Source: Marinicellulosiphila megalodicopiae (GTDB taxonomy: Bacteria; Pseudomonadota; Gammaproteobacteria; Pseudomonadales; Natronospirillaceae). From it: a DNA stretch of 32,000 nucleotides. The notes under the pieces were generated by a model. The model worked only from the letters and a program-made list of their open reading frames with translations, made no database searches and was not told the DNA's origin. The stretch lies in the NCBI RefSeq assembly GCF_045862395.1, contig NZ_AP023087.1, positions 196,744 to 228,743 of the forward strand. Direction: 5' to 3'. Of the stretch, positions 1,910-27,403 are shown piece after piece. The position numbers and the translations under genes were made by a program. The number at the start of each line of letters is the position of its first letter. Position 1 is the stretch's first letter.

Positions 1910-1940
1910 TTAATTTTTTATTAAAAAAGGTGAAGTAAAA

Positions 1941-3131: not shown

Positions 3132-3376
3132 TATCACTGATCGTTAACCATCTTGGATTAAAAATATCCACTAGAAAATAAGAATATTTGTAGGAAAGAA
3201 ATTAATCCCGATGACATCAGTGTTAGAAAGAATGTTAGAAACAGTTAGTTTTATTTAGGCCAAAGAAGCGAAAAACCAACCGTTAGCTGTTTTTGGGCTT
3301 TGTATTTTAAATCGAAATGTTAATAAAAATTATCCCACTTACCAAAAGAATCAATTAAAAACTTGCGCATTCACTT

Positions 3377-3404
3377 TTGGTGTATCATTATATTAATACA
3401 CCAA
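3377..3404. promoter_or_regulatory. probable operator for the downstream GntR/YtrA-type regulator
   Basis: Perfect 9-bp inverted arms TTGGTGTAT-N10-ATACACCAA just upstream of the ATG at 3413. Confidence 0.5.
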
Positions 3405-3412
3405 TATAGCTG

Positions 3413-3817: not shown

Positions 3818-3819
3818 AT

Positions 3820-4692: not shown

Positions 4693-5950
4693 ATTTTTAA
4701 ATATATTAATAGCGAATATAAAGCTTTCAAAAAATTTATTAATTATTTGGATTTTAAGCATCGTTATTATCAACGGATTGTTGTTTGTTATTAATGCGTT
4801 TGTGTCATCTGATTTAGATTTAAATGTATACGCTATATATTTTGTAACCACTATTGTCATTGCTGTCGGATTTTTTTTGAATTTTTCTATTTTGAAAAAT
4901 AATCATTTTTATTCTGTTTTTTTTGAATATCGTTTATATCTGATATTAACTAGTCTTGCGATATTAACTTTTATTAGTTTTGTATCGGTAATAGGTATGG
5001 CGTTACTTGGTTATAGGGTTTGGTTGCATTTTCTCACACTTTTTATCGTTCTTAATAGCTTGATGCTATATTGTGCTATATTAAAAAAATTCACTATTGT
5101 GAGTAGTTTGGTAGCACTTTTTCCGGTGCTTGTTTTTTTTGATGATGTGTTTGATTTAAATAAAATTATTTTATTAACTTTTCTTGGGTTATTTCAAATA
5201 ATATTTGCATTTTTGTTAAACTATATCGAATCTAAGTATTCATTGAATGTATTTAAAGTCATTACCACATACATAAAATTAAATGTTGAATCCTTAATGT
5301 TTTTAATTGGAAGAAATATTAGATTGACCACATTTTTTAATAAATTAGATTTATATTTACATGTGTTTGTTTATTTGTTTTTTCTATTATTTTTGTTTCT
5401 AATATTTTCTAAAAGTGAAAATGATATCACTTACGAATTAATTGTATTGAGTTTTTTTGTCTTATTCATTCTAAGCTTAATTTCAATTCATCAAAAAACA
5501 CTTATGTTTATTAAATATTTAAAACCTGTGTACCACCTTTATCCTAATAGTAGCTTAAGTCATTCTATTATTAAGTATTTAAAAGTTAATATTATGGTGA
5601 ACATTCTAATTATTATTACTTTAGTGATGATTTTTGTCATTAGTTTTGATTTAGTTATCGATTATGAATTTTATTTTTCTGTGATGATTTTTAATCTAAC
5701 CTTCTTCGTTGGGCTGCTTCCTCTTTTGTTATTTCATAATCACACTAATAGCAGTATCTTATCATTTATATTTGTTATGTTTATTTTTTCGCTGATAGTT
5801 TCCATTAATGTTGGGTTTTATTATTTTGAATTTTCTGCTGTTTTGTATCTATTGCTAATTGCTTGTATCGTATCTTTTTTTGTGACTTACAATGTTGGGC
5901 TGAAATGGTATTTATCTGTTAGCAAAGAAAGGATGTTAAAAAATTCATAA
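4685..5950 (+). CDS. ABC transporter membrane protein (permease)
   Basis: 421-aa polytopic hydrophobic protein overlapping the ATPase ORF by 8 nt. Confidence 0.75.
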   Translation: MHKFLNILIANIKLSKNLLIIWILSIVIINGLLFVINAFVSSDLDLNVYAIYFVTTIVIAVGFFLNFSILKNNHFYSVFFEYRLYLILTSLAILTFISFVSVIGMALLGYRVWLHFLTLFIVLNSLMLYCAILKKFTIVSSLVALFPVLVFFDDVFDLNKIILLTFLGLFQIIFAFLLNYIESKYSLNVFKVITTYIKLNVESLMFLIGRNIRLTTFFNKLDLYLHVFVYLFFLLFLFLIFSKSENDITYELIVLSFFVLFILSLISIHQKTLMFIKYLKPVYHLYPNSSLSHSIIKYLKVNIMVNILIIITLVMIFVISFDLVIDYEFYFSVMIFNLTFFVGLLPLLLFHNHTNSSILSFIFVMFIFSLIVSINVGFYYFEFSAVLYLLLIACIVSFFVTYNVGLKWYLSVSKERMLKNS

Positions 5951-6012
5951 TAAATGGAAAACTAAATGGATTTAAAAACTTATTGTCAATAATAATGGTT
6001 GTATAAAAATAA

Positions 6013-6036
6013 AAAACGCGCAATTAAGCGCGTTTT
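6013..6036. terminator. bidirectional intrinsic terminator
   Basis: AAAACGCGC-AATTAA-GCGCGTTTT between the converging permease and PhoX-like genes. Confidence 0.8.
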
Positions 6037-6054
6037 AATTATAAGAATAAAACC

Positions 6055-8091: not shown

Positions 8092-8158
8092 GTTGTCACT
8101 CCGAATTTTGATTAAGATATTGGGCGAATAATTATCGTGGGACAAACTAAATTTTTAG

Positions 8159-8177
8159 TATGACAAACATGTGACAC
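8159..8177 (-). promoter_or_regulatory. Pho-box-like direct repeat upstream of the PhoX-like gene
   Basis: Reverse strand reads GTGTCACATGTTTGTCATA: TGTCAC and TGTCAT half-sites spaced 11 bp apart, as in the PhoB box. Confidence 0.5.
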
Positions 8178-8290
8178 TAATATGTGATTTATATGAATAT
8201 TTGTATTCAGAATTATTAGACATTAAATATAAAATGAAGGTATCCATTTTTAGTGCTACAAAATTTTATCACACTGTGTTTTACATCCAT

Positions 8291-8313
8291 AAAAAAAGGG
8301 AGCAATGCTCCCT
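8291..8313 (-). terminator. intrinsic terminator of the lactate dehydrogenase gene
   Basis: On the - strand GGGAGC-ATT-GCTCCC followed by a T run (TTTTTTT). Confidence 0.85.
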
Positions 8314-8335
8314 AAAGATAGTTCTAAGTTTTATA

Positions 8336-9289
8336 TCATTCAACTTGTAAAGTGGCGTATTGCTCTTTTAAAATATTTGCACTTTCCACAAGTTGTTGTT
8401 GTTCTTCAGTTGACAAATGAATATTAGGCATCAACTGCGCACCATCTTTTGACACTATACAGGGTAATGAAATACACACATCGTCTATTCCATGTTGTCC
8501 TGTAATTAATCGCGAAACAGTAAGTAGTGATTTTTTGTCTTTGATTATAGCGCTCACAATTTTTACTAGGGCCATACCAATTGCAAAATAGGTAGAGCCT
8601 TTAGCTTCGATAATTTTATAAGCAGAGCGTTGTACGTTTTCGGTGATGCTTGCTTTTTCGGCTTGTGTTAAAGGCTCGGTTAATGAATATTGATCAATAT
8701 CAATACAGCCAATACTTGCAATGGACCAGGCTGTAAATTCTGAATCACCGTGCTCACCAAGTACATAAGCATGAACGTTATGAATGTCTACTTTCATGCG
8801 ATCTGCTAAGTAATAACGTAATCGTGCTGAGTCTAAAACAGTACCTGACCCAAATACTCGGTTAGCAGGTAGGCCGGTTCGCTCTAATACCACTTTGGTT
8901 AAAATATCCACAGGATTTGAGACAACCAAAATAACGCCTTTTGGATCTTGGCTTTTTATGTCATCTGCAATGCTGCACATAATTTTTTGATTACGTTTTA
9001 ATAAGTTTAAACGGCTTTCGTCTGGGCGTTGTTTTGAGCCTGCGGTAATGACAATGACATCGGCATCGGCATAATCCTCAATGCCACCTGCACGCATTTT
9101 TGTGGTTGGCATAAAACAAAAGCCTTGAGCTAAATCTAATACCTGTCCTTCACTTAATGCTTGATTGCTGTCGACGATTACAATTTCTTCAAAATCGCCA
9201 GTTTGAGCTAATGCAAAAGCGAAGGTTGCGCCAACACTGCCTGCGCCGACGATGACGATTTTACGTTGTTGCCATGGATTGTGTGGCAT
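8336..9289 (-). CDS. ldh: L-lactate dehydrogenase (LDH/MDH family)
   Basis: KIVIVGAGSVGATFAFAL, VVSNPVDILT, RVFGSGTVLDSARLRYYLA, YVLGEHGDSEFTAWS: NAD-binding motif and catalytic GEHGDS. Confidence 0.92.
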   Translation of the reverse strand: MPHNPWQQRKIVIVGAGSVGATFAFALAQTGDFEEIVIVDSNQALSEGQVLDLAQGFCFMPTTKMRAGGIEDYADADVIVITAGSKQRPDESRLNLLKRNQKIMCSIADDIKSQDPKGVILVVSNPVDILTKVVLERTGLPANRVFGSGTVLDSARLRYYLADRMKVDIHNVHAYVLGEHGDSEFTAWSIASIGCIDIDQYSLTEPLTQAEKASITENVQRSAYKIIEAKGSTYFAIGMALVKIVSAIIKDKKSLLTVSRLITGQHGIDDVCISLPCIVSKDGAQLMPNIHLSTEEQQQLVESANILKEQYATLQVE

Positions 9290-9452
9290 GGTTTTGTCCT
9301 CATAAATTAGTAATGTTGATTATTTTAGGCTTGTATTTTGGTTTGCACTATACCAACAAGTGATAGGTTTTCATTGATTAATGTAGAGGTAATCAATGTA
9401 GGTTGTTGGTATGATTTACGCGCAAAATTTAGTGATAATTAAGGTAGACAAA

Positions 9453-11775: not shown

Positions 11776-13041
11776 ATGAAATCAATGTACTTTACTTTAT
11801 TTACTATTATTAACCTGTTTGCATCAAGCTGTTCTGATGATGCTAAGCATTCTCCCCCTGCAACCCCCACTACTACGTTAAGTGTCGGGGGGTTCAATAA
11901 CGCTCCAAATTATATAATGGACAACCAAGCGCGTATTGAAAATAGGCTCAACCTCAAACTAAATATTACTGATAATAATTGGAGTGTTCATCACACTGCG
12001 TTAAGTGCTAATTTATACGAGTCGCCTCAATTTCTGAATGACATTGAATTTATAGACGCAGGCATGCTGGCAGGCTATTTACATAATGAAAACTTAATGG
12101 ATTTAACCGATAAATTTGAGCCAATAAAAAATAACTTCCCGGATTTTTCTGTCGCTCATGGAATAAATGATGAATCAAAACAAATCGCTGTTCCATTTGA
12201 ATTAGGCCCTGGTGTTGCAATATATCGAAGAGCGTATATGGAAGACATCAATCAAAATTTAGCCGATGTCATGGCCACTTGGGAAAGTTGGTTAGAATAC
12301 GGAAGAATGTTAAAACAAGATCATAATGTCTATTTAATTGCAAATTCTGCTGGAGTTGCTCGTGCAATTATTTATTCAGATATCAAAGAAAATACAGGTG
12401 TATATTTTGGTGAGAATAATGAAATTTTAGTTGAAACCGATCGATTTAAAACGGCATTTCAAATTGCCAAAATCTTAACTGAAGAAGAGCTAGCAGAAAA
12501 TTTAGGTATGTGGAATTCAAATTGGTATGAAGGGTTTAATAATGCAAGCTTCGCAATGGAGTTTCAAGGAGCATGGTTGTTGCAAAGCTTGGCAGATTGG
12601 ATTGCCGAAGACACTGCTGGACAATGGGGTGTGAGTCATTTACCCAATGGAATTCATATGGCATGGGGCGGTACCTATTTAGCAATTTCAAATAACAGTA
12701 AAGAAAAAGACGCCGCATGGGAATTAGTGAACTACTTAATTGAATCTCAAAATCAACTGGATATTTATCAACAAATATTTACTTTTCCAGCAAACTTGCT
12801 TACTTATAGTGATGCGTATTTTGATCAAAGCAATCCATTTTTAAATCATCAAAAAGACAGAAAAATTTATGCTGAAGTAGCATTGAATATTAAACCTGCA
12901 AAATATCATAGATTAAATAATGTAGCCGAGACACAGGTAATGAATTATGCGCTCACTTCAGTATTAAATGGTAGCGCGACCATTGATGAAGCACTTGCTA
13001 CTGCTGCAAAAAATATTCAACTGAGACTTGATGAAAAGTAA
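11776..13041 (+). CDS. extracellular solute-binding lipoprotein (family 1 SBP-like), orphan
   Basis: N-term FASSC lipobox-like; C-terminal MAWGGTYLAISNNSKEKDAAWELVNYLIESQNQLDIYQQ resembles sugar SBPs. No permease or ATPase adjacent. Confidence 0.65.
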   Translation: MKSMYFTLFTIINLFASSCSDDAKHSPPATPTTTLSVGGFNNAPNYIMDNQARIENRLNLKLNITDNNWSVHHTALSANLYESPQFLNDIEFIDAGMLAGYLHNENLMDLTDKFEPIKNNFPDFSVAHGINDESKQIAVPFELGPGVAIYRRAYMEDINQNLADVMATWESWLEYGRMLKQDHNVYLIANSAGVARAIIYSDIKENTGVYFGENNEILVETDRFKTAFQIAKILTEEELAENLGMWNSNWYEGFNNASFAMEFQGAWLLQSLADWIAEDTAGQWGVSHLPNGIHMAWGGTYLAISNNSKEKDAAWELVNYLIESQNQLDIYQQIFTFPANLLTYSDAYFDQSNPFLNHQKDRKIYAEVALNIKPAKYHRLNNVAETQVMNYALTSVLNGSATIDEALATAAKNIQLRLDEK

Positions 13042-13043
13042 AA

Positions 13044-13082
13044 AAAGATTGAGATGCTAATTTACTTAGCATCTCAATCTTT
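13044..13082. terminator. bidirectional terminator-like hairpin
   Basis: Perfect 17-bp stem AAAGATTGAGATGCTAA-TTTAC-TTAGCATCTCAATCTTT right after the SBP stop codon. Confidence 0.85.
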
Positions 13083-13254
13083 TCTATATTCTAAATCTAT
13101 TTAGTCAATATCATATCAAATCCTCTCAAATTGTAATCAAAAGCGATAAGCAACAACTTTTATTATTTCTAATCTGAGTTTAATTCAATGAATCACTTCG
13201 CCTAATTCAGCAAATCGGTTAAAATCTTAAAATTATTCAATAGAGAAGTAGATT

Positions 13255-13578
13255 ATGGGTTTTATTAAATTTTTCATCATTCTGTTATTTATCGCATTTG
13301 GGATTGGCGTACTGTCTAAACCTGATGAGCAATCTTTAAAAGATATGTATTATCAGAAAATCTTAAATGACGTGCAGCAAATTAACGAAGACGATAACCT
13401 GTTAAGTGGCGCATTAAAAGTTGCTTGTATTTTAACCAAAGATGATTGTGCACAAAGTATTGTGGATAATTTAAACATTCAAAGTACCGATTATTTCGCA
13501 ATGAAACTTGCTAAAGTTCAGATTCAAAGTAATGAAAATATTTGTTTAGGTGTGTTTAATACTTGGAAATGTTTTTAA
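13255..13578 (+). CDS. small hypothetical protein with N-terminal TM or signal segment
   Basis: 107 aa, MGFIKFFIILLFIAFGIGVLSKP..., two-Cys motifs (ACILTKDDCAQ). Family not recognised. Confidence 0.45.
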   Translation: MGFIKFFIILLFIAFGIGVLSKPDEQSLKDMYYQKILNDVQQINEDDNLLSGALKVACILTKDDCAQSIVDNLNIQSTDYFAMKLAKVQIQSNENICLGVFNTWKCF

Positions 13579-13745
13579 GTAATTAATATCATTGAGGCAG
13601 GCTCAATTTATAAAAATCTAAAATGTATATTTTAAAATCAGATTGAAAATTGTATGCTAAGTTTTTAGAATGCTTAGGGTTTTGACTTTGATACTTAATT
13701 TTTTATTTGCTTTATTTAAAATATTATATCTGTAACTGTAAAAAA

Positions 13746-13772
13746 TCCTCGATTTTGGTCGAGGACTTTTTT
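13746..13772 (+). terminator. intrinsic terminator
   Basis: TCCTCGA-TTTTGG-TCGAGGA followed by CTTTTTT. Confidence 0.85.
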
Positions 13773-13834
13773 AGTTTTTTGAATTGGGTTGGTTTAAATT
13801 GTTGACAGCCATAAATAATATAGGCTTTACCTGC

Positions 13835-14400
13835 TTAAAATTTATCATTAGTGTCATGTTTGTAAGTATCGGTTATAAAGTCAGGAATCCCATCATCTTT
13901 GATGCCATTCAAGCCAGAAATACTTTTCGAGAATTGGTCATTTTTTAATTTTCAATTAATGATAACGTTTTGCTCTGCAGTCATATCAAATATATCTAAC
14001 GAGCTATACCAACCGCTGGCTGAGCCAAAAGTAAAAAATACACGGCAAGCATTCTCAACTTTATCTATTTCAGATTCAGTTAAATCATCAATGCCATCCT
14101 CGTTAAACTCTTTAATTGCACTTAACTCAAAAACAGTGACATCTAACATTGTTTCACCGTTTAATATAAGTCCATTACTGCCTTCTAATAATTCGACATC
14201 AATTTTTTCTAAATCTTCTAGTCCAAATACAATATAAGCAGTACATGAGGTTAAATGACTTTCATTACCAAAACTGCATCATCTATTTCATTTACCCAGC
14301 CAGTATTCTTCCCATAAAAAATATCATTTAAAGAGCTACTTCGAAATGCAAAACCCTCATTTTCATCATGATGTCTTAACCTCTGCAAAGTAAGCAATTA
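13835..14400 (-). pseudogene. decayed FG-GAP (integrin-alpha-like) repeat protein fragment
   Basis: Three - strand frames together read ...GWVNEIDDAV | GNESHLTSCTAYIVFGLEDLEKIDVELLEGSNGLILNGETMLDVTVFELSAIKEFNEDGIDDL... | FSKSISGLNGIKDDGIPDFITDTY, i.e. FG-GAP style DxNxDGIDD and YVVFG motifs broken by frameshifts/stops. Confidence 0.6.
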
Positions 14401-14439
14401 ATAAACCCATTAATGTGCTAACCAGCGACTTTTCAATCA

Positions 14440-14700
14440 AAGGTGGGAAGTTTTGACTTAAATGTTACGCCAGTAGGCGAAAACACATAAGGTGCCATTT
14501 AAGAATTAAATTCCGAATTTTTACCAAATGGTTGGTTTGTTACTAGGGCATTTGAACGTTGTATAACCTTAAAATCAGAAGGGTTTGAAGGCATTGGAAT
14601 GCCGAGGGATATTTATAGTGAAAATTTTAGCAAAGAGCAATCTTTTGAAATATTACCCAACGCAATGAATTTCGCAATTGAAAACATCAATAAAAAATAG
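14440..14700 (+). pseudogene. C-terminal remnant of an S41 (C-terminal processing) peptidase-like gene
   Basis: In-frame reading DLNVTPVGENT*GAI*ELNSEFLPNGWFVTRAFERCITLKSEGFEGIGMPRDI* resembles the S41 tail VGExTxGA...LPNGW...(D)G..FEGxGIPPDI, with two internal stops and no start codon. Confidence 0.5.
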
Positions 14701-14784
14701 TTTATGGTTGAAATTTCATGCAATTTTACTTCTTTGTTCTATTCTGTAATTAACTGAAATTTTTATTAGTACTTTGGAAAAACT

Positions 14785-15843
14785 ATGTTGCAAGTTGTAA
14801 AGCAATTATCAAATTGGATTGGCGTAGCGCTTATAATGAGTGTTTGCTTACAAATTCATGCTCAAACGCCACCTGCGCCAGTGAACATGGTGATCCATTC
14901 AGGTTTTGTGAATCTGATGAGTGATCCAAAAGCGCTTGTATTTACTGATCTATATGAGGTGCCACCTAGTATCAAGCGTGTGGCTTTATATAACAGCAAC
15001 GATAAACTATCTAAGGAGATCAGTAAGCAGACTCGAACCATGATCGAAGGACAAATTTTATCAGAATTGTTAAATACAAAACGATTTGAAATTACAGCCT
15101 GTGTTGAATGCGATCAAATTAATGTCATATTAAATGAAGAGCAAGTCAAAATTGAAAAAGCCATTGAGAGCAATCAACAATTAAGGAAACTTGCAAAAAT
15201 CATTGCCGTAGATGCATTTTTTGTATGGAGTGCTCAAGTGGTAAACCAGCAATATCGAATCGATATGCGGTTGATTCGCGCCACAGACAATCAAGTATTA
15301 TGGACGCACCAGTATGCAAAAAAAACCACAGAAGAAGACGTGATAAAAGATTTTAAATCCACTCAATGGGAAATGTATTTAAGTAGCATTGGTTTTAAAA
15401 TGGAACGCACCTCCAGTACATTAAGTACTTTAAAATCTGGGCAGATTTCTGTGTTTGGGTTGCGTCGTCGTGAAGCGTCTACTTTTTATCCACATTTAAA
15501 TTATGGGTTAGGTATTGAGGTGTTTGGCAACATTACCAAGCGCGAATCCATGCCATTTTTTGGTGGGTCCATTAATGGCCGACTTAGTTTAGATTTTCCC
15601 GCATTACAAAAGTATATTCCTACCAGTACTTATATTGAAGTAGGGCAGAGTATATACAATCAAAGCCAAGCTTTAATTTTTAAATACGGACTTGAATTTC
15701 CGTTTGCTAAAAATGGAATCATTAATTTAGGTGTCTTATATTCTCCTGAAAATACAATCATTTGGGATGCGTTTGAAGACTATTCAACTGAAACCGTATT
15801 TGGTGGAGCAACTTATGAAATTATGCTGGGGTATCGACTTTGA
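14785..15843 (+). CDS. exported protein with CsgG/FlgO/TolB-N-like domain and putative outer-membrane C-terminal region; first gene of the motor-like operon
   Basis: Signal-like N-term ending IHAQ; LAKIIAVDAFFVWSAQVVNQQYRIDMRLIRATDNQVLWTHQY resembles CsgG/FlgO-type proteins. C-terminal alternating aromatic segments end in ...GGATYEIMLGYRL. Confidence 0.6.
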   Translation: MLQVVKQLSNWIGVALIMSVCLQIHAQTPPAPVNMVIHSGFVNLMSDPKALVFTDLYEVPPSIKRVALYNSNDKLSKEISKQTRTMIEGQILSELLNTKRFEITACVECDQINVILNEEQVKIEKAIESNQQLRKLAKIIAVDAFFVWSAQVVNQQYRIDMRLIRATDNQVLWTHQYAKKTTEEDVIKDFKSTQWEMYLSSIGFKMERTSSTLSTLKSGQISVFGLRRREASTFYPHLNYGLGIEVFGNITKRESMPFFGGSINGRLSLDFPALQKYIPTSTYIEVGQSIYNQSQALIFKYGLEFPFAKNGIINLGVLYSPENTIIWDAFEDYSTETVFGGATYEIMLGYRL

Positions 15844-16652
15844 ATATTCAATATAAAATTTTATCGTGCATTATTTTTCTATTATTTTCATTAACCGGCT
15901 GTACATCGATTAAGCAAAAAAAAGACATGAATGCACAATTAAATGATTTGCCGCAAAGCAGCGCATTACCTGCATTTGATATGCCTGCACCAGTTAAAAA
16001 AACAAAAGATGATTTTGGTGTGCTGGCCATTAAACAAGATGGTCCAGGTTATGAAATTAATTTAGCTCTAGATACAGGTGATGAAAATGTTAGTTTTCAA
16101 ATGGATTTACCGGAGCAATCCTCTGCAAGCAAAAAACTTGCGCAACAGGATAATTCACAGTTACCTAAAACCGCAATAACAAAAATAAAAAATGACGAAC
16201 TTGATGGTTTTATCGATCCGATGACTTCAACTGATTCTGTTGAAAAAACAAAAGTGATGCCTAACAATATTACCTCAACACAGCAAGCAAAAATAGACAG
16301 TGCTTTTACTGGAAACACACCTGAAAACAATGTCAGTAATCCAAACAACAGTAACCTAAACAACAGTAGCCAAAACAATAGTAACCCAAAAAACAATGGG
16401 CCAAGTGCCAATGATTATTTAGTGTCTGCACAAACGCAATTTTATGAAGACAATTATATGGGCGCGTTAACGGATATTGAACAGGCTATTTTACAAGACG
16501 ATACTCAAGCATTGTCCTATGCAATTAAGGGTTCTATTTTATACAAGCTTGGCAACAAAAACGCAGCAAAAATCGCATGGCAAAAAGCGTTAAAGTTGAA
16601 TCCAAAATTATCATCAGTTGAATTAAGTCTGCAATATTTAGTAGGGCAATAA
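15840..16652 (+). CDS. TPR-containing lipoprotein with Asn-rich linker
   Basis: Lipobox FSLTGC; linker NTPENNVSNPNNSNLNNSSQNNSNPKNNG; C-terminal NYMGALTDIEQAILQDDTQALSYAIKGSILYKLGNKNAAKIAWQKALKLNP is TPR. Overlaps the previous gene by 4 nt. Confidence 0.8.
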   Translation: MNIQYKILSCIIFLLFSLTGCTSIKQKKDMNAQLNDLPQSSALPAFDMPAPVKKTKDDFGVLAIKQDGPGYEINLALDTGDENVSFQMDLPEQSSASKKLAQQDNSQLPKTAITKIKNDELDGFIDPMTSTDSVEKTKVMPNNITSTQQAKIDSAFTGNTPENNVSNPNNSNLNNSSQNNSNPKNNGPSANDYLVSAQTQFYEDNYMGALTDIEQAILQDDTQALSYAIKGSILYKLGNKNAAKIAWQKALKLNPKLSSVELSLQYLVGQ

Positions 16653-16653
16653 G

Positions 16654-18585
16654 ATGAAACGGATACCGTTATTAGTAATTGGCGCACTGGGTTTATTTTG
16701 TGTAAACCTCAAAGCAAATGAAATACAGCAATTAGATATTGTTGATCAACTTGAGCACCGTGTTGCAAGAGATGTGGCTGCCTATTTAGGGCACAATCGT
16801 TTTATCGTAAATATTGATGTCGCATTGTCAGCGATTACCTTGCAAAACAATCAAGTAAATTCTTCTCAAAATAATCAAGCAGAAATGGATGCCTATGAAA
16901 ACTTCAGTGAAACCATTTCATCACTTGAAGAAGTTATTCGTGTTTTGGAAAGTCAACAGCCTAAAATCAGTGAAATATCATTACCGGGATTACCCTTTGC
17001 TGCCCCAGAAAAAATTGACATTCCGGAATCGGAAGCACTGACCCTTTTAAATAAAACTATAACGGATTATCAAAACAAAAAACCCATAGCAACCTCAACA
17101 CCCAATAATGTTGCACCCACACTTACAGTATCAGAACAAACAAAAATTGATAATATTTTAGTAACCCTAGTAATTGATGAAACCATCGATGCAGAGCAAT
17201 TAAATTTTGTTAAATTTTTGATTGAAGACAAGTTAAATATCAATCCATTTCGTGGTGATAAAATCAGTGTCTTTCCAACTAAATTTAATTTAGAAACTTT
17301 TGAGCCAACGTTAAATTTAGATGAGCCCCTTGATTTAGACTCACCGATTAATTCTCAATTGAACGAAGATAAAAATACAGCAATGGAGCAGCCAGCATTA
17401 TTTGCATGGAATCAACCATTAACTTGGATATTGCTTGTACTTGTGGTTATGTTTTTAATGATGTTACTACTTTTAATTAGACGCAACCAAGGTGCTACTA
17501 ATTTGCAGTCAAATGCTCAGGCAGACACTGGATCAGTGACAGCATATAGCGACACCCATAAAAAACCTGACAATGTTTATGCTTATTCAGAAAAAATTAA
17601 AAACCTGAAGCAAGATATTATTAGCTCGGGATTGAGTCATCCTGAGCGTACAAGTTTAAGAGTGGATGAATTATTGTTTGAGCCTAATAATCAAGCCATG
17701 CTTGCCTGTGCGTATTTTGTGTTAGGTGGATCATTATTCAGAGGGTTATTTCCAAGCGTATCTCAAGCACAGCTTGTGACAATTTCACAATATCTAGACG
17801 AACAACAATTAGAGGATGAATCCATCGTACAAGAATTAAGTGCGCTGCATTTAATTTTATCTAAGCACAATGACACTAAAAGCACGACTACCACATTAGC
17901 GCCATTTCAATTTTTAAAACGCCTAAATAACAATCAAATTATTTATTTATTGCAAGAAGAAGAGCCAAGAATTAAAGCATTAGTACTTAGTCAGTTACCC
18001 GCGAATCGCGCCGCTGACATCATTCATAAACTCACCCCAGACCAGCAGGGGCAAGTTGCCTTTGAAATAGGTCAGTTTAGTGAATTTCCTATTTCTACCT
18101 TTAAAGATATTGCCCAACGTTTAGCCAAAAAATCATTAAATGTCCCAAGTTTTGAAAATCTCAATACCGATGGAACAAGTTTGATGATTGATTTATTAGA
18201 CAACATGAAAAATGAAAATGAACATCAATTTTTACAACAACTTAAAAATCAATCGCCTGAAATGTATTATCGTATTCGACAAATTTATTTTACTTTTGAA
18301 GACATTAAACGCACGCCTACTACTACATTAAAAGATGCTTTTGTAGATTTAGATCGCAAACAATTAGCGTTTGCATTAATGGGTGTGGATGAAACGTTAC
18401 TGCAACATTGTTTAGATTCCATGCCAAACAAATTAAAACAAGCCGTTAAAGATGAAATTGAATTCAGTGATGTAAAACCAAGTACCGATATGATTGAATC
18501 TGCTCGCAAACATATTGTTAAACATATTCGTGCATTAATTGAACTTGGTAAAATCAATATGCAAGACTTAGCCACGCTAGAATAA
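16654..18585 (+). CDS. natural fusion of a reduced FliF (RBM3-like + C-terminal TM) and FliG (middle + C-terminal torque domain)
   Basis: aa 32-58 QLEHRVARDVAAYLGHNRFIVNIDVAL ~ FliF YEQRIE..L.PIVG..NV.A.V...LDF; aa 163-211 KIDNILVTLVIDETIDAEQLNFVKFLIEDKLNINPFRGDKISVFPTKF ~ FliF RBM3 end; TM at aa ~253-275; aa ~437-495 and 505-643 match FliG middle and C domains (LDRKQLAFALMGVDETLLQHCLDSMPNKLKQAVKDEIEF). Confidence 0.85.
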   Translation: MKRIPLLVIGALGLFCVNLKANEIQQLDIVDQLEHRVARDVAAYLGHNRFIVNIDVALSAITLQNNQVNSSQNNQAEMDAYENFSETISSLEEVIRVLESQQPKISEISLPGLPFAAPEKIDIPESEALTLLNKTITDYQNKKPIATSTPNNVAPTLTVSEQTKIDNILVTLVIDETIDAEQLNFVKFLIEDKLNINPFRGDKISVFPTKFNLETFEPTLNLDEPLDLDSPINSQLNEDKNTAMEQPALFAWNQPLTWILLVLVVMFLMMLLLLIRRNQGATNLQSNAQADTGSVTAYSDTHKKPDNVYAYSEKIKNLKQDIISSGLSHPERTSLRVDELLFEPNNQAMLACAYFVLGGSLFRGLFPSVSQAQLVTISQYLDEQQLEDESIVQELSALHLILSKHNDTKSTTTTLAPFQFLKRLNNNQIIYLLQEEEPRIKALVLSQLPANRAADIIHKLTPDQQGQVAFEIGQFSEFPISTFKDIAQRLAKKSLNVPSFENLNTDGTSLMIDLLDNMKNENEHQFLQQLKNQSPEMYYRIRQIYFTFEDIKRTPTTTLKDAFVDLDRKQLAFALMGVDETLLQHCLDSMPNKLKQAVKDEIEFSDVKPSTDMIESARKHIVKHIRALIELGKINMQDLATLE

Positions 18586-18599
18586 TAAAGAGAAAAAAC

Positions 18600-19412
18600 A
18601 TGCCTTTTATAAGTACAGTTATTGGATTTGTTGGTGCTTCGTTATTATTTATATTTGCTATTACATCAAGTACCGATTCCTACTCAATGTTCTTAAGTCC
18701 ATCCAGTTTTTTATTAGTACTTGGGGGGACATTGGCAGCAAGTATTATTTCATTTAATTTATTTGATGTATTAAAAGCATTAGGGGCAATATTTAAAACA
18801 CTTTCAAATGACAAGGACACCAATCAAGTATTAAATAAAGATGTTAAAAAAATAATTGATTGGAGCAAAGTGTATCGAAAAAAAGGGTTGGGTAGTTGGA
18901 TTGACTCATTATCAAGCAAAGATCAAAAAGATAAATTTTTAAATTATTGTTTTGAAATGGTGCAAACTGGATATGAGCAAGAGGAATTACGTTATTTAAT
19001 TTCAGCAAGAATAGAGGCTGATTTTACGCGCAAAGCCCAGCCTGCAAAAATATTACAAACCATGGCAAGTTACGCTCCAGGCTTTGGTATGGTTGGCACT
19101 ATTATCGGCTTAATTATTATGCTTGATACGATGGGTGGCGATATTTCTGCATTAGGTAAAGGCTTGGCCTTAGCGTTAATTACCACGCTATATGGTGTAC
19201 TTTTAGGACAGCTAGTATTTAAACCCTGTGCTACCCATTTATTTAATAAAGTAGAAGGAGAATATTTTAGGCATCAAATTATTTTGGAAGGTATTATTTG
19301 TATTTTACAAAAACGCGATTCTATTGCGATTCAAGATCATATTAACGCTCTGTTGCGCCCTAAAGCCTATTATCAATTAAGCAATGAAAAAGAAGGAAAG
19401 TCCGATAAATAA
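18600..19412 (+). CDS. MotA-like stator subunit (MotA/TolQ/ExbB proton channel family)
   Basis: 270 aa; SFLLVLGGTLAASIISF, TMASYAPGFGMVGTIIGLIIMLDTMGGD, GKGLALALITTLYGVLLGQLVFKPCA: MotA signature segments. Confidence 0.92.
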   Translation: MPFISTVIGFVGASLLFIFAITSSTDSYSMFLSPSSFLLVLGGTLAASIISFNLFDVLKALGAIFKTLSNDKDTNQVLNKDVKKIIDWSKVYRKKGLGSWIDSLSSKDQKDKFLNYCFEMVQTGYEQEELRYLISARIEADFTRKAQPAKILQTMASYAPGFGMVGTIIGLIIMLDTMGGDISALGKGLALALITTLYGVLLGQLVFKPCATHLFNKVEGEYFRHQIILEGIICILQKRDSIAIQDHINALLRPKAYYQLSNEKEGKSDK

Positions 19413-20076
19413 ATCAAAACCAACAGCAATGCGCAGACGACCTCGCGCAGCAGACAATGGCGATGATTGGTTATTAACTTATGCCGATGTGATTACACTG
19501 CTGCTTGCTTTTTTTGTAATGTTGTTAACCATCACCGATGTAAACGAAGGAAAAATGGAAGCGTTAAAAGAAGCGCTCTCTGAAAATATTACCAAGGGAG
19601 AAGTCAATACACCGTTAAAAGATATTGAAACCATGGTAGAAAATGCATTTGCTCTTAAAGGTGCGTCTGAATTTACAGAAGTAGAAATCAATCAGGATGG
19701 AATCAGCATAGAGTTAAATAATGTTTTAATGTATCCATCTGGTCAAGCGACTTTATCGGGTAATGCTTTAGATATTATTGAATCTTTAGGTCGTTCAATA
19801 CAGCCTTATATAAAAGATCATTATGAAATTTGGATTGAAGGACACACAGATGATATCCCTATTCATACTGAAAAGTTTGATTCAAACTGGGAATTAAGCT
19901 CAATAAGAGCGATTAATATTGTGCAAGCATTATTAGCCCAAGGTATTGATGCGAATCAATTAGTTGCGGTAGGGTTTGCAGATTCGCGACCTAAGAAAAC
20001 GGACTTGGTTTTAACGCAGCAGGAACAACGTAATATGAATCGCCGAGTGGTGATTCATATTAAGCGGGTTTATTAA
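19384..20076 (+). CDS. MotB-like stator subunit with OmpA/MotB peptidoglycan-binding domain
   Basis: RRPRAADNGDDWLLTYADVITLLLAFFVMLL carries the TM Asp; C-terminal IEGHTDDIPI...NWELSSIRAINIVQALLAQGI...GFADSRP...NRRVVIHI is the OmpA-like domain. Overlaps the MotA-like gene by 29 nt. Confidence 0.93.
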   Translation: MKKKESPINKSKPTAMRRRPRAADNGDDWLLTYADVITLLLAFFVMLLTITDVNEGKMEALKEALSENITKGEVNTPLKDIETMVENAFALKGASEFTEVEINQDGISIELNNVLMYPSGQATLSGNALDIIESLGRSIQPYIKDHYEIWIEGHTDDIPIHTEKFDSNWELSSIRAINIVQALLAQGIDANQLVAVGFADSRPKKTDLVLTQQEQRNMNRRVVIHIKRVY

Positions 20077-20079
20077 TAT

Positions 20080-22947
20080 TTATTGAGTGATTTTATTTAA
20101 TTCAATGACACCTGCATTAAGTTTTAATTGATATTGCACTGAAATATTATTTTCATCACTTGAAACGCTTACAGTATATTCACCATCTTGTTTGAACTGA
20201 TGCATCATAGTTAAAGTTGCGTCTGTATGATATCCATCACCAAAATCCCAATGTAAGGTTTTCACTTGCGAACTTGTGCACTGCTGATTTGAAATAATGT
20301 TTGCCATTGCTGAAAACTGAATTGTATTTGGATTTAATTCATCGTAAGAACTTTGTAATGAAATCGAATTAAATTGTGCATTGCAATTTTGGGTTAGTTG
20401 TTCGTCAGAAATGACTATGCTGGTTAAATTTTCCCAATCACCATACTGAGAATAAGTAATGTTATACGTACCCGGTTGGCTGTAGATATGTGTAAGTGAG
20501 CCAGTATTATAATATTGGTCAATACTTTCATCACCAAATGAAATCGTCAAATTGTCCGTTTGACTTGAGCATATTGATTCTCTTACAAATACATTTAAAT
20601 TCACTTGATTATTAATTTGTGAAATGAATTCTGCTTCAACTGGATTTATTGCCTGGCAATTAGAGACTGTAAATAATTCAGGCAATATCGAAACAACAAA
20701 TTCATCATTTAATTTGATGTCATAGTATTTTGAAGCATTGGCAAATTGATGAGTTAAATAATCTGTATTAAATTCGAATGCAGCACTGCCATTATCTAAA
20801 TCCAAAATTGGTCGAGTGCTGTATGCATAATTACAAATTTCAGAATTTTTAGCAGTTAAATCAAAAATAAATGTGTTATATGTATTTGTATCCACCCTAT
20901 AATTTAATTCCCAGTCACATTGTACAAAATCATCTGATAATGGTTCATTTAATTCAAAATTAGTTTGTCTAATTAATTCTAATGTAGATTCATTATCACT
21001 AATGATAATTTTATATTTTGATTCTAAATCCCCTGTTGCTGTATTTGCAGTAACAATATAATTGCCATTACGCAAATAGGTATGTGAAATACTTCCACCA
21101 GTTTTTGCTAGATATCCATCACCCATGTCCCAATATACTGTGTTTAGCGAACTCAAGGTGCAGCCATCTTCATTTAACTTCATTATTTCAGCATTTAAAT
21201 TAACGCTGTTGTTACCTTTTATAGATTGCATTAATGTGACGTTAATGAATTCAGAAAAATCCGCACATGAAAATTCAAGATCACTTTGATCAATCGTCAC
21301 GGTATAAATATCATCTGAATTACTGTTATCGCCAGTTGAATTGTAATTATTTAATGACTGTCCATCAAATTTAATTTGATAAACGCCAGCTTCTGAAAAT
21401 ACATGTTCGATTAATCCTTGTGAATAATAAGAAGGTGCACCATCTCCAAAATCTATTTCAACTAGACTACCATTATTGCTTTTACAGCCAATGTAGATGT
21501 CATCGTTATAATTTAGTGTTAATTTATTTTTATTTAATGAAATCACTTCAATTAAACTAGAAGTATATAGGCATCCAGTATCTGTCGATATGGATGTATT
21601 TCCTAGAGTTGTATACACAATTTCATTATTCAATTTTATGTCGTAATTTAAATCTGGATTTTCATAGATATATTTGACGTAATCCGTTTCTACAGAAAAA
21701 GGTTCACTTGAATCACCCATGTCAATGATAGGGCGAATAATATTTTGCATATCACAAGTGTCTGGATTTGTAACATCAACTGCTAAAATCATAATATTAT
21801 AGGAGTCATTTGCTAAAGAAACATCAAAATGACATGCATCAAAATTACCTGAATCAATTTGATGTTGCCCAATTAGTTTTGATTTAAATTCATCCTGTTC
21901 AAAAGTAATTTCATATATTTTCTCGATATTATTTTCGGGGGTTCTAAGCGTAACAATATACGTTTTATTTTGTTTAAATTCATGAATGATCGAACCATCA
22001 AAATTTGAATCTACATATGTTTTAGTGTTTCTTCCATCTCCAAAATTCCATTCAAAATATTTTACATCTGATTGTGTGCATTTGTCTGCTGAAAGCATTG
22101 TTCCTTTTGGAATAAAATTAATTTGTTTATTATTATTTTCATCAACTACAAATGTCAATTGAGTAATTGGTATTTCCCCATCACACTGATTAATTAAATC
22201 GTCTGCAGAAATATTAACTAACAACTCTTCATTATCTTGATATTGCTCGTATCCAGGTGGAACGAAATTATTAAAATTAGCCAACGATAAGCTATTAAAT
22301 GTAATGTCGTTATATTCGCCGATATCGGAAAAAATATGTTTTATTTTTCCTTGGTTGTAAACTTCGGGCTGGCTACCATCATTAAAATCGATTAAGACTT
22401 GGGCTGAATTATGCTCGCAACTATAATATCCTTCATAGCCATAATTTAAAATTAATACATTATCTATAATAGACTCAATGCTGATTTTCTCTGGAGAACT
22501 AATTGAGCAAGAAGTAATTGAACCTGCATCTCCATATATAGTCAGCGCTAATTCGTTATTTAATTTAATGTCGTATTCCATAAAGGATTTTTCATATTCA
22601 TAAGTAACATAATCGCCTTCCACAACAAATGGGGCGCTTCCATCGCCCATGTCTATAGTTGGTTTTTGCAGATTAGTTTGATCGCATGTAGCTTCATTTA
22701 ATAATGACACTGACAAAATAACAGAATTGTAATCGTAAATTTTCTTTACGGTCCAAATGCACTGATCTGGATCTATCACGACTAATTCAGTTTCGATGGA
22801 ATCACTTGATTCAGTTTCTGTATTTGTTTCAATACCAGATTCCGTATTAGTATCCAATTCTGAGTCGGTGGAATTATTCGCTTCAACCAAGTTATCTAAA
22901 CAAGACGAAAGTAATAGCGTAACAAAAAATAGGTTTAAAGTTTTCAT
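20080..22947 (-). CDS. large lipoprotein with tandem PKD-like domains in three ~300-aa supermodules
   Basis: Lipobox LLLSSC; repeated PTIDMGDGSAPF / IDFNDG / FEWNFGDG...HEF...YIVTL; VYWDMGDG...SHTYLRNGNYIVT; LHWDFGDG...MHQFKQDGEYTVSV. Confidence 0.85.
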   Translation of the reverse strand: MKTLNLFFVTLLLSSCLDNLVEANNSTDSELDTNTESGIETNTETESSDSIETELVVIDPDQCIWTVKKIYDYNSVILSVSLLNEATCDQTNLQKPTIDMGDGSAPFVVEGDYVTYEYEKSFMEYDIKLNNELALTIYGDAGSITSCSISSPEKISIESIIDNVLILNYGYEGYYSCEHNSAQVLIDFNDGSQPEVYNQGKIKHIFSDIGEYNDITFNSLSLANFNNFVPPGYEQYQDNEELLVNISADDLINQCDGEIPITQLTFVVDENNNKQINFIPKGTMLSADKCTQSDVKYFEWNFGDGRNTKTYVDSNFDGSIIHEFKQNKTYIVTLRTPENNIEKIYEITFEQDEFKSKLIGQHQIDSGNFDACHFDVSLANDSYNIMILAVDVTNPDTCDMQNIIRPIIDMGDSSEPFSVETDYVKYIYENPDLNYDIKLNNEIVYTTLGNTSISTDTGCLYTSSLIEVISLNKNKLTLNYNDDIYIGCKSNNGSLVEIDFGDGAPSYYSQGLIEHVFSEAGVYQIKFDGQSLNNYNSTGDNSNSDDIYTVTIDQSDLEFSCADFSEFINVTLMQSIKGNNSVNLNAEIMKLNEDGCTLSSLNTVYWDMGDGYLAKTGGSISHTYLRNGNYIVTANTATGDLESKYKIIISDNESTLELIRQTNFELNEPLSDDFVQCDWELNYRVDTNTYNTFIFDLTAKNSEICNYAYSTRPILDLDNGSAAFEFNTDYLTHQFANASKYYDIKLNDEFVVSILPELFTVSNCQAINPVEAEFISQINNQVNLNVFVRESICSSQTDNLTISFGDESIDQYYNTGSLTHIYSQPGTYNITYSQYGDWENLTSIVISDEQLTQNCNAQFNSISLQSSYDELNPNTIQFSAMANIISNQQCTSSQVKTLHWDFGDGYHTDATLTMMHQFKQDGEYTVSVSSDENNISVQYQLKLNAGVIELNKITQ

Positions 22948-26317: not shown

Positions 26318-27403
26318 TTAATGTATGTATAACGATGTGATCAAGCGTTCAACCCAAAATGCACTAAATTGCTGATTTGATAGTTTACTGAGTTCAACCA
26401 ATGCACGTTTTACAGGTCTCTGATAATCGGACTTATAATAATGTCCATGTGTAATCGCTTCATAAGCATGAATAATAGACAGACACATAGCGCCAGGGTG
26501 AATATCGTTTTCAGTCAGACCTTTAGGGTAACCTAGACCGTTGACCCATTCGTGATGCTCATGCAAAATTCTTGAGGCTTGCTGCCAATGCTCGCTTTGG
26601 GATAATAAAAAACTACAGGCATAAACATGTGCTTTGATTTGTTTTTTTTCATTTTGGGTCATGGGCTGTTCGCGAGATAGCAATTTGATAGGCAAAAACG
26701 ACATCGCAATATCATGTGTATAAATAGCCGCTGCTATTTGTTCAAAATCAAAATCGTATTGGCTGCCGTCTAGCATTCTATGCGCAAGATTGAGTAATCG
26801 ATTGGTTCGTCCTTTCCATTGAGGCATTCTATTTTCGACGCTAGGAATTAAATTGGCAAAATAAGTTAAATCAGGATATTGCTCAGGAAACTGATTGTGA
26901 AGCATCGATTCTTCTATTTCTATTAATGAAGGTTGGTTGTGATTCAACAGAGCAAGGGCTTTGAGAATTTGTAACTCAGGGTCGCTATGGGTTGATATTT
27001 TATTGATTTGTATTCCAACATCTTCATAAAGTTTTGCGTCATAAAACACAGTCTCCGACTCAAGTGAGTCATTTAAAAATGTTTTAACATGATCAAGTAA
27101 TAATAACGAAAGATCGCCAATTTTAGGATTAAATTCAAGCTCACCTTGTCGAACCAAACTTAAAACGTCTTCTAATTCTTGTAATACAGGAATTAACGGC
27201 GGTAATTGTGCAATACTTAAATTGCCTTTAACTGTGTGGATATTTCTAAATAGTGCGCTGAGCTTTTCAGTCTCTTTAGGTTGATGCTCCAATTCAATAA
27301 TTAAATTTTCAGCATCTGCTAAATTTTCATGAAATTCTTCATGCAGGTTTTGCAGTAACTCTTGATTTAACTGTTCAGTTCTAAATTCTAACATTGTATG
27401 CAT
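26318..27403 (-). CDS. Hpt-domain protein fused to a degenerate HD-GYP-like domain
   Basis: N-terminal LFRNIHTVKGNLSI (Hpt phospho-His motif); C-terminal AAAIYTHDIAM...HEHHEWVNGLGYPKGLTENDI resembles HD-GYP with altered signature. Confidence 0.75.
   Translation of the reverse strand: MHTMLEFRTEQLNQELLQNLHEEFHENLADAENLIIELEHQPKETEKLSALFRNIHTVKGNLSIAQLPPLIPVLQELEDVLSLVRQGELEFNPKIGDLSLLLLDHVKTFLNDSLESETVFYDAKLYEDVGIQINKISTHSDPELQILKALALLNHNQPSLIEIEESMLHNQFPEQYPDLTYFANLIPSVENRMPQWKGRTNRLLNLAHRMLDGSQYDFDFEQIAAAIYTHDIAMSFLPIKLLSREQPMTQNEKKQIKAHVYACSFLLSQSEHWQQASRILHEHHEWVNGLGYPKGLTENDIHPGAMCLSIIHAYEAITHGHYYKSDYQRPVKRALVELSKLSNQQFSAFWVERLITSLYIH

Follow-up and report, generated by a model that had tools for sequence, protein, structure and literature searches.

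In the flagellum, FliG coupled to stators of the MotA/PomA type rotates, and the RBM1 and RBM2 domains of FliF house the export gate. To our knowledge, FliG and the MS-ring have until now been regarded only as flagellar parts. Here we analyze a 32,000-nucleotide stretch of the genome of Marinicellulosiphila megalodicopiae (contig NZ_AP023087.1, positions 196,744 to 228,743, forward strand; hereafter the window, whose own numbering we use), which encodes a natural fusion of FliF and FliG of 643 amino acids (aa) as one of five adjacent genes (14785-20076). We propose that the five genes specify a self-contained motor, driven by ions and independent of the flagellum, in which this fusion is the rotor, a reading to which we assign a probability of roughly 0.65. 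On the most economical reading, this motor would be derived from, or sister to, the core of the flagellar motor. We found no description of a natural FliF-FliG fusion or of this cassette in the searchable literature, a scope that did not extend to subscription journals.

Among the closest described systems is the core of the flagellar basal body, with which the cassette has in common a ring domain of the RBM3 type that is interrupted by an insert at the collar position, the second transmembrane (TM) segment and, probably, the C-terminal tail of FliF, the M and C and probably the N domain of FliG with the charges of the torque helix, and a stator of the MotA5B2 type with plug, channel Asp, two MotA prolines and OmpA-like anchor. 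The cassette departs from the flagellar core in that FliF and FliG are one polypeptide without RBM1, RBM2 or, apparently, the first TM anchor, in that FliM and FliN are missing and the FliM-binding EHPQR motif is lost, and in having an LPGLP motif of its own; moreover, no genes for an export gate, ATPase, rod, hook or filament lie near it. Engineered FliF-FliG fusions of Salmonella and Vibrio are known to assemble rings (PMC6079021, PMC10941966), and the structure of an engineered fusion (PDB 8z4d; cf. 8z4g) was matched by our family profile. These are laboratory constructs, in which full-length FliF with RBM1-3 and two TM segments sits inside a complete flagellum, whereas the cassette fusion is natural, N-terminally truncated and represented by 186 sequence clusters at 50% identity.

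Three further groups of systems resemble parts of the cassette. The ExbBD-TonB, TolQR-TolA, AglRQS, GldLM and ZorAB motors likewise use a 5:2 unit of the MotAB family with envelope partners and, as we propose for the cassette, serve purposes other than swimming. However, the cassette stator is of the flagellar MotA/PomA type, unlike those of the ExbBD-TonB and TolQR-TolA kind, and we know of no FliG or FliF-ring partner in any of these motors. The injectisome protein SctJ (PrgK/EscJ) and the sporulation protein SpoIIIAG are membrane-anchored periplasmic proteins with the same alpha-beta-beta-alpha-beta ring-building fold, but their systems have neither a stator nor FliG. In the H-ring (FlgO, FlgP, FlgT) and T-ring (MotX, MotY) of Vibrio and in the tetratricopeptide repeat (TPR) proteins PflA/PflB of Campylobacter, as in the cassette, a FlgO/FlgT_M-like or TPR protein is paired with a stator. 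The cassette differs from these scaffolds in that its FlgO/FlgT_M matches fall below the Pfam threshold, its 352-aa protein has an additional probable barrel, and there is no LP-ring on which its proteins could be seated; a scaffold role is only one possibility for them.

The cassette encodes a fusion, a stator and two envelope proteins

All five genes point the same way, and neighbours either overlap or lie no more than 14 nucleotides (nt) apart; they are as follows.

14785-15843, + strand: secreted protein of 352 aa, first gene of the cassette, with a FlgO/FlgT_M-like N-terminal domain (Pfam, hidden Markov model [HMM])
15840-16652, + strand: lipoprotein of 270 aa with an LTGC lipobox, Cys21 and Thr at position +2 (Pfam TPR, alignment)
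16654-18585, + strand: natural FliF-FliG fusion of 643 aa, ATG start (open reading frame [ORF] list, Pfam, profiles, Foldseek)
18600-19412, + strand: stator A subunit of the MotA/PomA type, 270 aa, four TM helices (Pfam, PDB profile, alignment)
19384-20076, + strand: stator B subunit of the MotB type, 230 aa, with plug, channel Asp35 and OmpA-like peptidoglycan-binding domain (Pfam)

The database protein 100% identical to the fusion (M. megalodicopiae) is annotated merely as "FliG C-terminal domain-containing protein". We predict a layout of signal peptide, RBM3 with insert, TM helix, FliF tail and FliG N-M-C, because the profile matches, the predicted fold and the unfused proteins of a distant locus (L033, below) agree. 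The parts of the fusion, all on the + strand, are these.

16654-16716: signal-peptide-like N-terminus, aa 1-21, ending VNLKA|NE (hydropathy, ends of relatives)
16723-17286: FliF RBM3-type ring-building domain, aa 24-211, with RGD at aa 200-202 (profiles, Foldseek, AlphaFold)
16843-17130: insert at the position of the FliF beta-collar, aa 64-159, with LPGLP at aa 110-114 (AlphaFold, alignments)
17422-17478: single strong TM helix, aa 257-275, corresponding to FliF TM2 and followed by cytoplasmic RRNQ (hydropathy, AlphaFold, FliF alignment)
17575-17688: helices like those of the FliF C-terminal tail, aa 308-345 (FliF alignment, unfused L033 protein)
17689-17883: equivalent of the FliG N-domain, aa 346-410 (alignment with the stand-alone protein P0189, Foldseek)
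17905-18144: FliG middle domain, aa 418-497, with EEPR (aa 436-439) at the EHPQ position and R489 kept (Pfam, alignments)
18238-18561: FliG C-terminal domain, aa 529-636, with YFTF at the MFXF position (Pfam, Foldseek)
18421-18462: torque helix, aa 590-603, with K593, D600 and E601 (alignment)

The N-terminal half corresponds to FliF from RBM3 through the second TM segment

A first-pass annotation, made from the letters of the window, had read this gene as a FliF-FliG fusion lacking the first TM segment and RBM1/RBM2, and that reading of the FliF half held throughout. The 643-aa ORF and all peptides quoted from it are in place (QLEHRV...DVAL, aa 32-58; IDNILV...PTKF, aa 165-211; NKLKQAVKDEI, aa 592-602), and a profile match to Salmonella FliF and Foldseek agree with the assignment of the N-terminal half to RBM3 through TM2. 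Specifically, a profile built from A1, an alignment of 23 relatives colinear with the fusion from end to end, matched Salmonella FliF in the PDB with E 3.4e-8 (fusion 38-337 to FliF 234-540), a span that begins at the first RBM3 helix, crosses TM2 and reaches into the cytoplasmic tail. When the N-terminal 345 residues were used alone as a profile, FliF was the sole significant match in the PDB (E 5e-4). Pfam YscJ_FliF_C, which covers the RBM3 region, matched aa 44-211 of the fusion just below its cut-off (E 2.3e-4; 22.1 bits compared to 23.8), and many relatives carry a recorded match to this family. Landmarks common to the fusion and FliF are the first helix, the strand preceding the second helix, the RGD(T/K)L-V---F motif and a Trp-rich stretch before the TM segment.

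The predicted fold points the same way. In an AlphaFold2 model made with the family alignment, the RBM3 topology is alpha-beta-[insert]-beta-alpha-beta, with a predicted local distance difference test (pLDDT) score of 80-92 in the core. The structural match to FliF RBM3 on which the first-pass annotation had staked its claim was found, since the best 18 Foldseek matches to the model of aa 1-292 were all FliF; 17 were RBM3/collar or MS-ring structures of Salmonella and Vibrio (E 1.3e-5 to 6e-4, probability 1.00) and the eighteenth was an integrative FliF-YlxF model (E 8.9e-4, probability 0.96). Beyond rank 18, the matches were inner-ring (SctJ-type) chains of injectisomes (E 0.07, probability 0.14).

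As had been claimed at first pass, RBM1 and RBM2 are missing: Pfam YscJ_FliF, the family of these domains, had no match in the fusion at E<=1, and the first helix of RBM3 starts only about 10 residues after the signal-like segment. The first FliF TM segment also appears to be absent. The hydrophobic stretch at the N-terminus is weak (aa 1-22, with an 11-15-residue core LVIGALGLFCV; mean Kyte-Doolittle hydropathy over 19 residues 1.68, compared to 3.1 for the strong TM segment), and it closes with small residues, LKA|NE in the fusion and the AxA-like AYA|ET or SYA|ET in relatives. Since the core is short and ends in small residues, this stretch fits a cleavable signal peptide better than FliF TM1, with cleavage predicted from these features. 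The one strong TM segment that had been noted is borne out by hydropathy at aa 257-275 (TWILLVLVVMFLMMLLLLI), within a hydrophobic segment of aa 248-280 and an AlphaFold helix of 255-289.

The insert at the collar position contains two predicted helices, of low confidence, that flank the LPGLP motif. Both motifs of this half are strongly conserved in the wide family, with D202 invariant and R200/G201 nearly so (RGD), and with L110, P111 and G112 nearly invariant (LPGLP). In the profile alignment, LPGLP is not present in FliF at the aligned position.

Beyond the TM helix, the alignment with FliF extends to residue 530-540 of its 560, and the tail-like segment has conserved Q320, G326, L327 and P330. 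The separate 386-aa FliF-like protein of locus L033 ends in the same conserved helix, RQAIITLSVGSPE, equivalent to aa ~315-341 of the fusion. Thus, aa ~308-345 probably correspond to the C-tail of FliF. The linker (aa 286-425), used alone as a family profile, gave no significant match in the PDB or Pfam, and therefore the assignments of FliF tail and FliG_N rest on the unfused homologue and the fold alignment.

The C-terminal half appears to be a complete FliG with conserved torque residues

Pfam identified FliG_M at aa 427-497 (E 2.7e-14; 53.6 bits, gathering score 25) and FliG_C at aa 529-635 (E 7.5e-23; 81.3 bits, gathering score 23.3), and no direct Pfam match to FliG_N at the expected place in the fusion. 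However, aa 351-639 align with residues 14-303 of P0189, the stand-alone 310-aa FliG-like protein of locus L033 (29% identity, E 4e-44), and P0189 itself carries Pfam matches to FliG_N, FliG_M and FliG_C. The first-pass annotation had described a FliG middle plus C-terminal region; both domains were borne out, but the restriction to these two was not, as the alignment through P0189 indicates that the fusion holds a complete FliG with N, M and C. Among structures, the family profile matched Aquifex FliG (E 2.4e-26), the top 13 Foldseek matches to the full fusion model were FliG, full-length Aquifex and Salmonella FliG aligned over 311-349 columns (Aquifex 349), and Thermotoga maritima FliG_C superposed with a TM-score of 0.89 and a root-mean-square deviation (rmsd) of 1.5 A.

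Although recognizably FliG, this half is divergent. It reached 90.9 bits against the NCBIfam fliG equivalog TIGR00207 (cut-off 226.7), over model positions 102-328 alone, and the NCBIfam fliF model had no match in the fusion. Because the bit scores against Aquifex (95) and Thermotoga (80) FliG exceed those against Salmonella FliG (27-28), the FliG of the fusion does not appear to be a recent copy of a gammaproteobacterial fliG.

The torque helix retains its charges. In alignments with T. maritima and Aquifex FliG, K593, D600 and E601 correspond to E. coli FliG R281, D288 and D289, as had been proposed at first pass. In E. coli these residues are the partners of MotA E98 and R90 (PMC7564593). 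Within the close family, K593 is invariant and every member has at least one acidic residue at 600/601. The further proposal that torque generation is retained is supported by these charges; the stronger argument, in our view, is that dedicated MotA and MotB genes adjoin downstream and that the five-gene cassette is conserved across phyla. In the EHPQR motif that binds FliM, the EHPQ part reads EEPR and varies across the family, with only the Arg (R489) conserved.

The stator is of the flagellar type and the two other partners are envelope proteins

The cassette MotA (Pfam MotA_ExbB, E 1.4e-22) matches Clostridium sporogenes MotA (E 2.9e-30) and PomA (E 1.7e-23) over its full length, and the ExbB/TolQ models are marginal. 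Relative to E. coli MotA, R93 corresponds to R90, P160 and P209 correspond to P173 and P222, and Ile101-Asp102 stand at the position of E98. Across 26 MotA orthologues, the equivalent of R93 is nearly invariant, P160 and P209 are invariant, and the E98 position is mostly Glu. The motB gene overlaps motA by 29 nt and encodes MotB_plug (E 1.6e-15) and OmpA (E 1e-12) domains; in a 12-sequence alignment the TYADxITLLLAFF segment, with the channel Asp, and the plug and OmpA motifs are invariant. All scores against the equivalogs of named stators (MotA, PomA and MotP; MotB, MotD and MotS) were below the NCBIfam cut-offs, the best being MotP (155.8 compared to 394 bits) and MotD (170.2 compared to 283 bits). 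The stator is a divergent branch and none of the named ones, and the cassette as a whole fails the equivalog tests for FliF, FliG and named stators yet, by its domain matches, is clearly built from their domains.

The 352-aa protein has a conserved CxEC motif (aa 106-109) in its FlgO/FlgT_M-like domain. Its FlgO match is weak (E 0.0081; 16.4 bits compared to 22.6), and among ten family members FlgO was matched in six (best E 6.9e-4) and FlgT_M in two, all below the gathering score; NCBIfam gave no match for this protein. The C-terminal strands have a weak FadL-like match (E 0.017) and relatives end in ...LGYRF, an outer-membrane-type C-terminus. This is probably, then, an outer-membrane protein whose C-terminal half resembles a beta-barrel. 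In the 270-aa lipoprotein, a small and conserved domain at the N-terminus is joined by a variable linker rich in Asn and Ser to a pair of TPR units at the C-terminus (TPR_1/TPR_2 at aa 225-256 in Pfam), and the Cys of the protein is invariant across the family. Its profile found only generic TPR matches in the PDB, with none for the N-terminal domain. By the E. coli +2 rule, this lipoprotein would be sorted to the outer membrane.

All five genes are under purifying selection, with ratios of nonsynonymous to synonymous substitution (dN/dS) in close pairs of 0.035-0.10 (~0.08 for the 352-aa protein, ~0.07 for the TPR lipoprotein and ~0.035 for MotB). Flagellar genes other than those of the cassette, including those for export, rod, hook, FliM and FliN, are absent from the 32-kb window, and FliM/FliN genes were found neither there nor in the related loci.

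The cassette is conserved as a unit in close relatives

We found 34 full-length or near-full-length relatives of the fusion with 30-73% identity. A scan that took one genome per species yielded 25 loci, in Oleispira, Bermanella, Thalassolituus, Oceaniserpentilla, Gynuella, Saccharospirillaceae and one Moritella. In 31 close-family loci, Moritella included, the five-gene order is identical wherever the contig reaches, and the genes flanking the cassette vary between lineages. Three distant relatives inspected individually also have the five genes, with different flanks. Besides M. megalodicopiae TOYAMA8 (JCM 31119 / DSM 114864), the carriers in culture include Bermanella sp. R86531, Thalassolituus pacificus 59MF3M-4 and Moritella sp. 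JT01. A homologue search with a more diverse alignment (A5) returned the close family again and added nothing.

Among the 25 named loci, that of Moritella sp. JT01 (L026, NZ_LOCN01000024.1) alone comes from outside genera of the Oceanospirillales/Pseudomonadales type, setting aside two metagenome-assembled genomes (MAGs) labelled just "Gammaproteobacteria". Since Moritella stands outside the carrier genera and, for each of the five proteins, has the most divergent sequence in the set, these sequences suggest that the whole cassette was transferred horizontally.

M. megalodicopiae, a cellulolytic deep-sea bacterium of the Oceanospirillales/Pseudomonadales, has a complete genome of 4,648,065 bp and monopolar flagella, and its flagellation on cellulose differs from that on cellobiose (PMC11966569). 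The fusion is therefore additional to an ordinary flagellum. The genome paper on Oleispira antarctica described "two stator systems MotAB and PomAB", which were taken as dual flagellar stators (PMC3759055). Because Oleispira MAGs carry the cassette, the second MotAB of Oleispira may instead belong to the FliF-FliG fusion.

A wider family extends across phyla

We searched 1.84 billion cluster representatives (clusters at 50% identity) exhaustively with the fusion profile, and 186 of them matched at E<=1e-30. Among the best 150 of these 186 representatives, 116 contain a FliF half followed by a FliG half, with a TM-like segment between the two in 113, and 136 are at least 480 aa long (median length 618 aa). 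Named members with the fused form belong to Elusimicrobiota (Endomicrobia included), Fibrobacterales and further Gammaproteobacteria; the unfused form occurs in Marinimicrobia/Neomarinimicrobiota.

The distant loci contain the fusion, a protein of ~350-410 aa, a TPR protein, MotA and MotB. The gene order is permuted in Elusimicrobiota, and the fusion is the first gene in Elusimicrobiota and Fibrobacterales. HMMs built from gammaproteobacterial sequences recognize all five partners in L032, L034, L035 and L037, and the five-gene pattern is evident from Pfam calls and gene sizes in L038 (Fibrobacterales) and L039. The HMM of the 352-aa family was positive in five of six loci fetched for distant members, both Elusimicrobiota loci included, and homologues of the TPR lipoprotein occur in all related loci searched (L001-L037). 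In one metagenomic locus (L035, 10150-10939) the MotA homologue is split into overlapping ORFs of 131 and 137 aa, by a frameshift or a sequencing error.

The unfused arrangement is seen in L033, from a Candidatus Marinimicrobia cluster, where a 386-aa YscJ_FliF_C protein is directly followed by the 310-aa protein with FliG_N/M/C as a separate gene, with MotA and MotB just upstream of both (locus span 1167-8933). The HMM of the fusion family matches the FliF-like protein at E 3e-20. This locus has three TPR proteins (230, 346 and 456 aa) rather than one, and the gammaproteobacterial HMM detected no homologue of the 352-aa protein in it.

A preprint on magnetotactic Elusimicrobiota reports that most free-living members have no flagellar structural genes and yet have homologues of motAB and fliG, "whose role is unclear" (10.1101/2022.07.08.499144).

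In an Elusimicrobia contig (L037), the cassette stands back to back with type IV pilus genes (PilM, PilD, PilC, PilT, PilB and pilin) and adjoins a GAF-GGDEF gene (1-9400 and 15907-16929). Outer-membrane genes of the PorP/SprF type follow the cassette in L034 (5991-7070) and L036 (7303-8715). It is possible that these pilus and PorP/SprF genes are hints to the output of the motor.

A proposed flagellum-independent rotary motor

We consider that the fusion could act as follows. After Sec export and probable cleavage of the signal peptide, RBM3 domains would form a periplasmic ring in which every subunit is tethered to the inner membrane by a single helix and bears one FliG below the membrane. 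FliF and FliG would be held at a fixed 1:1 ratio, as each subunit carries its own FliG. MotB would fix MotA5B2-type units to peptidoglycan, and ion flow through the Asp35 channel would turn MotA, which in turn would push the FliG torque helix and rotate the ring; the expected charge pairing sets K593, D600 and E601 against MotA R93 and D102. The motor is probably non-switching, with no CheY-dependent reversal, since genes for FliM and FliN are absent and the EHPQR motif is lost. Torque would not be handed to a filament, because RBM1/2, export gate, rod and hook are absent, and the loss of RBM1/2 would leave the centre of the ring empty. Three parts are candidates for the load, namely the LPGLP-bearing insert atop the ring and the two envelope proteins (the TPR lipoprotein and the FlgO-like, probably outer-membrane, protein). 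They may be driven parts or may be a stator scaffold, like the H/T rings of Vibrio and PflA/PflB of Campylobacter.

Several points weigh against this model. The motor, including ring formation, rotation and expression, is known here from genes and predicted folds, and it is from these that we infer ring assembly, rotation, the outer-membrane location of the accessory proteins and flagellum independence in each carrier. No shaft or bushing is encoded, so that work done by rotation beyond the peptidoglycan is hard to account for. On the FliF side, the Foldseek superpositions of aa 1-292 have a high rmsd (~21 A), and it is therefore local similarity, in sequence and in 3Di letters, together with topology that carries the RBM3 match; the insert at the collar position has pLDDT <50 over much of aa 64-159. 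At the rotor-stator interface, the equivalent of E98 is Ile101 in this MotA (with Asp102 adjoining) and Ser-Asn in the Gynuella relative, and the wider family often lacks the acidic pair of the torque helix, with the basic residue usually kept. One distant locus (L036) has no MotAB beside the fusion. Finally, the flagellum-free state reported for most free-living Elusimicrobiota may not extend to the particular carrier genomes in Elusimicrobiota and Fibrobacterales.

Some of these same points would be expected if the cassette were an energy transducer instead, in which a static or slowly moving FliF-FliG platform docks and activates MotAB, whose ion-driven motion the TPR lipoprotein and the FlgO-like protein would relay to a process at the outer membrane, as in Tol-Pal, Ton and GldLM. 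The lack of axial parts or a bushing, the strict co-conservation of the two envelope proteins, the PorP/SprF-type genes after the cassette in L034 and L036, and the variable acidic residues of the torque helix in the wide family are all compatible with such a device. However, the stator resembles flagellar MotA/PomA over its full length, and not ExbB/TolQ, the FliG torque helix and the R93/K593 charge partners are kept under selection, and it is established that FliG coupled to such stators rotates in the flagellum. We therefore regard energy transduction as unlikely, although it is the strongest competitor to a rotary motor.

It is less likely still that the cassette serves the ordinary flagellum, as a second rotor-like ring, a reservoir or a regulator that binds the second stator type of the polar motor. 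Such a role would suit the flagellated state of the host and of most gammaproteobacterial carriers, and the likeness of the FlgO/FlgT-like and TPR proteins to the stator scaffolds of Vibrio and Campylobacter. Against this, the cassette lies apart from flagellar genes and has its own rotor and stator, its FliM-binding motif is lost, and it occurs in Elusimicrobiota and Fibrobacterales, with flagellum-free Elusimicrobiota reported to keep fliG and motAB. The regulatory evidence also argues, weakly, against a flagellar role: sigma-54 and sigma-28 consensus sequences occurred at chance level, with none upstream of the cassette. More generally, a scan of 14000-20400 found promoter-like sites to be fewer than in shuffled sequence, and no convincing terminator.

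We give very little credence to the idea that the five genes are what is left, decaying and functionless, of a second flagellar system that was lost. The retention of no more than a subset of flagellar proteins, and the split MotA of one metagenomic relative, might be expected of a remnant, but ORFs are intact in 25 species, five genes are kept across phyla, dN/dS is 0.035-0.10, and the family has invariant LPGLP and RGD motifs of its own that are not in FliF at the aligned positions. An artefact of assembly or gene calling that joined two genes, the danger also foreseen at first pass, is next to inconceivable, since nothing favours it besides the existence of the separate-gene arrangement in Marinimicrobia, and it is excluded by a gene that lies in a complete genome, by a reading frame colinear with full-length homologues (30-73% identity), by full-length relatives in 25 species genomes, and by both halves occurring in 116 of the 150 best cluster representatives.

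We also examined a defence function of the Zorya type and rejected it, because PADLOC showed only generic MotAB/Zor similarity (generic MotB/ZorB and a weak similarity to ZorA, E 3.6e-4). The one other PADLOC family matched was PDC-S19, marginally and by the fusion (E 0.0062), and ZorC- and ZorD-type genes were absent.

Implications

If the rotary reading is right, this would be the simplest FliG-based motor known, with about five proteins, a 1:1 ratio of FliF to FliG and no switch, and its simplicity would make it attractive for structural studies and single-molecule measurements of torque. We are evenly divided on the broader proposition that the cassette represents a new class of rotary machine, in which the flagellar rotor-stator core, without type III export or an axial structure, drives some process of the envelope or the cell surface in several phyla, flagellum-free lineages among them. 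Much like the injectisome, the cassette would then be a second machine made from a subset of the parts of the flagellum. This bears on how the flagellum was assembled in evolution, in that the motor module would be separable from the export module, and a torque-generating module could exist and evolve apart from the secretion module. A cellular function of its own is implied, which might be surface movement, an outer-membrane process or something inside the empty ring, in carriers that are abundant marine degraders of hydrocarbons and cellulose as well as Elusimicrobiota, Fibrobacterales and Marinimicrobia. In practical terms, genome annotations of "fliG" and "motAB" are no proof of flagellar motility or of dual flagellar stators.

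Neighboring genes in the window

Upstream of the cassette, ~1.7 kb (13042-14784) has no convincing ORF, only one doubtful 112-aa ORF with a TTG start, and no sigma-70, sigma-54 or sigma-28 consensus stood out in it. GC content is 0.28 at 13001-14000, and the stretch may represent either the remains of a gene or an extended regulatory region.

Convergent with the cassette, on the - strand (20080-22947), is a gene for a 955-aa protein with five PKD matches, a lipoprotein-like N-terminus (LLLSSC) and three internal repeats of ~300 aa each. We considered this protein as a sixth component of the cassette and rejected it, as it is missing beside the closest relative (L007) and in other loci.

Farther away, a 361-aa protein with Hpt and HD_5 (HD-GYP-like) domains is encoded at 26318-27403 on the - strand, possibly a phosphorelay-linked phosphodiesterase of cyclic di-GMP. 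At 3413-5950 there are genes for a GntR regulator, an ABC ATPase and a 421-aa protein without a Pfam match that is probably a membrane permease; these lie in the most AT-rich part of the window (GC 0.24 and AT skew -0.24 at 5001-6000).

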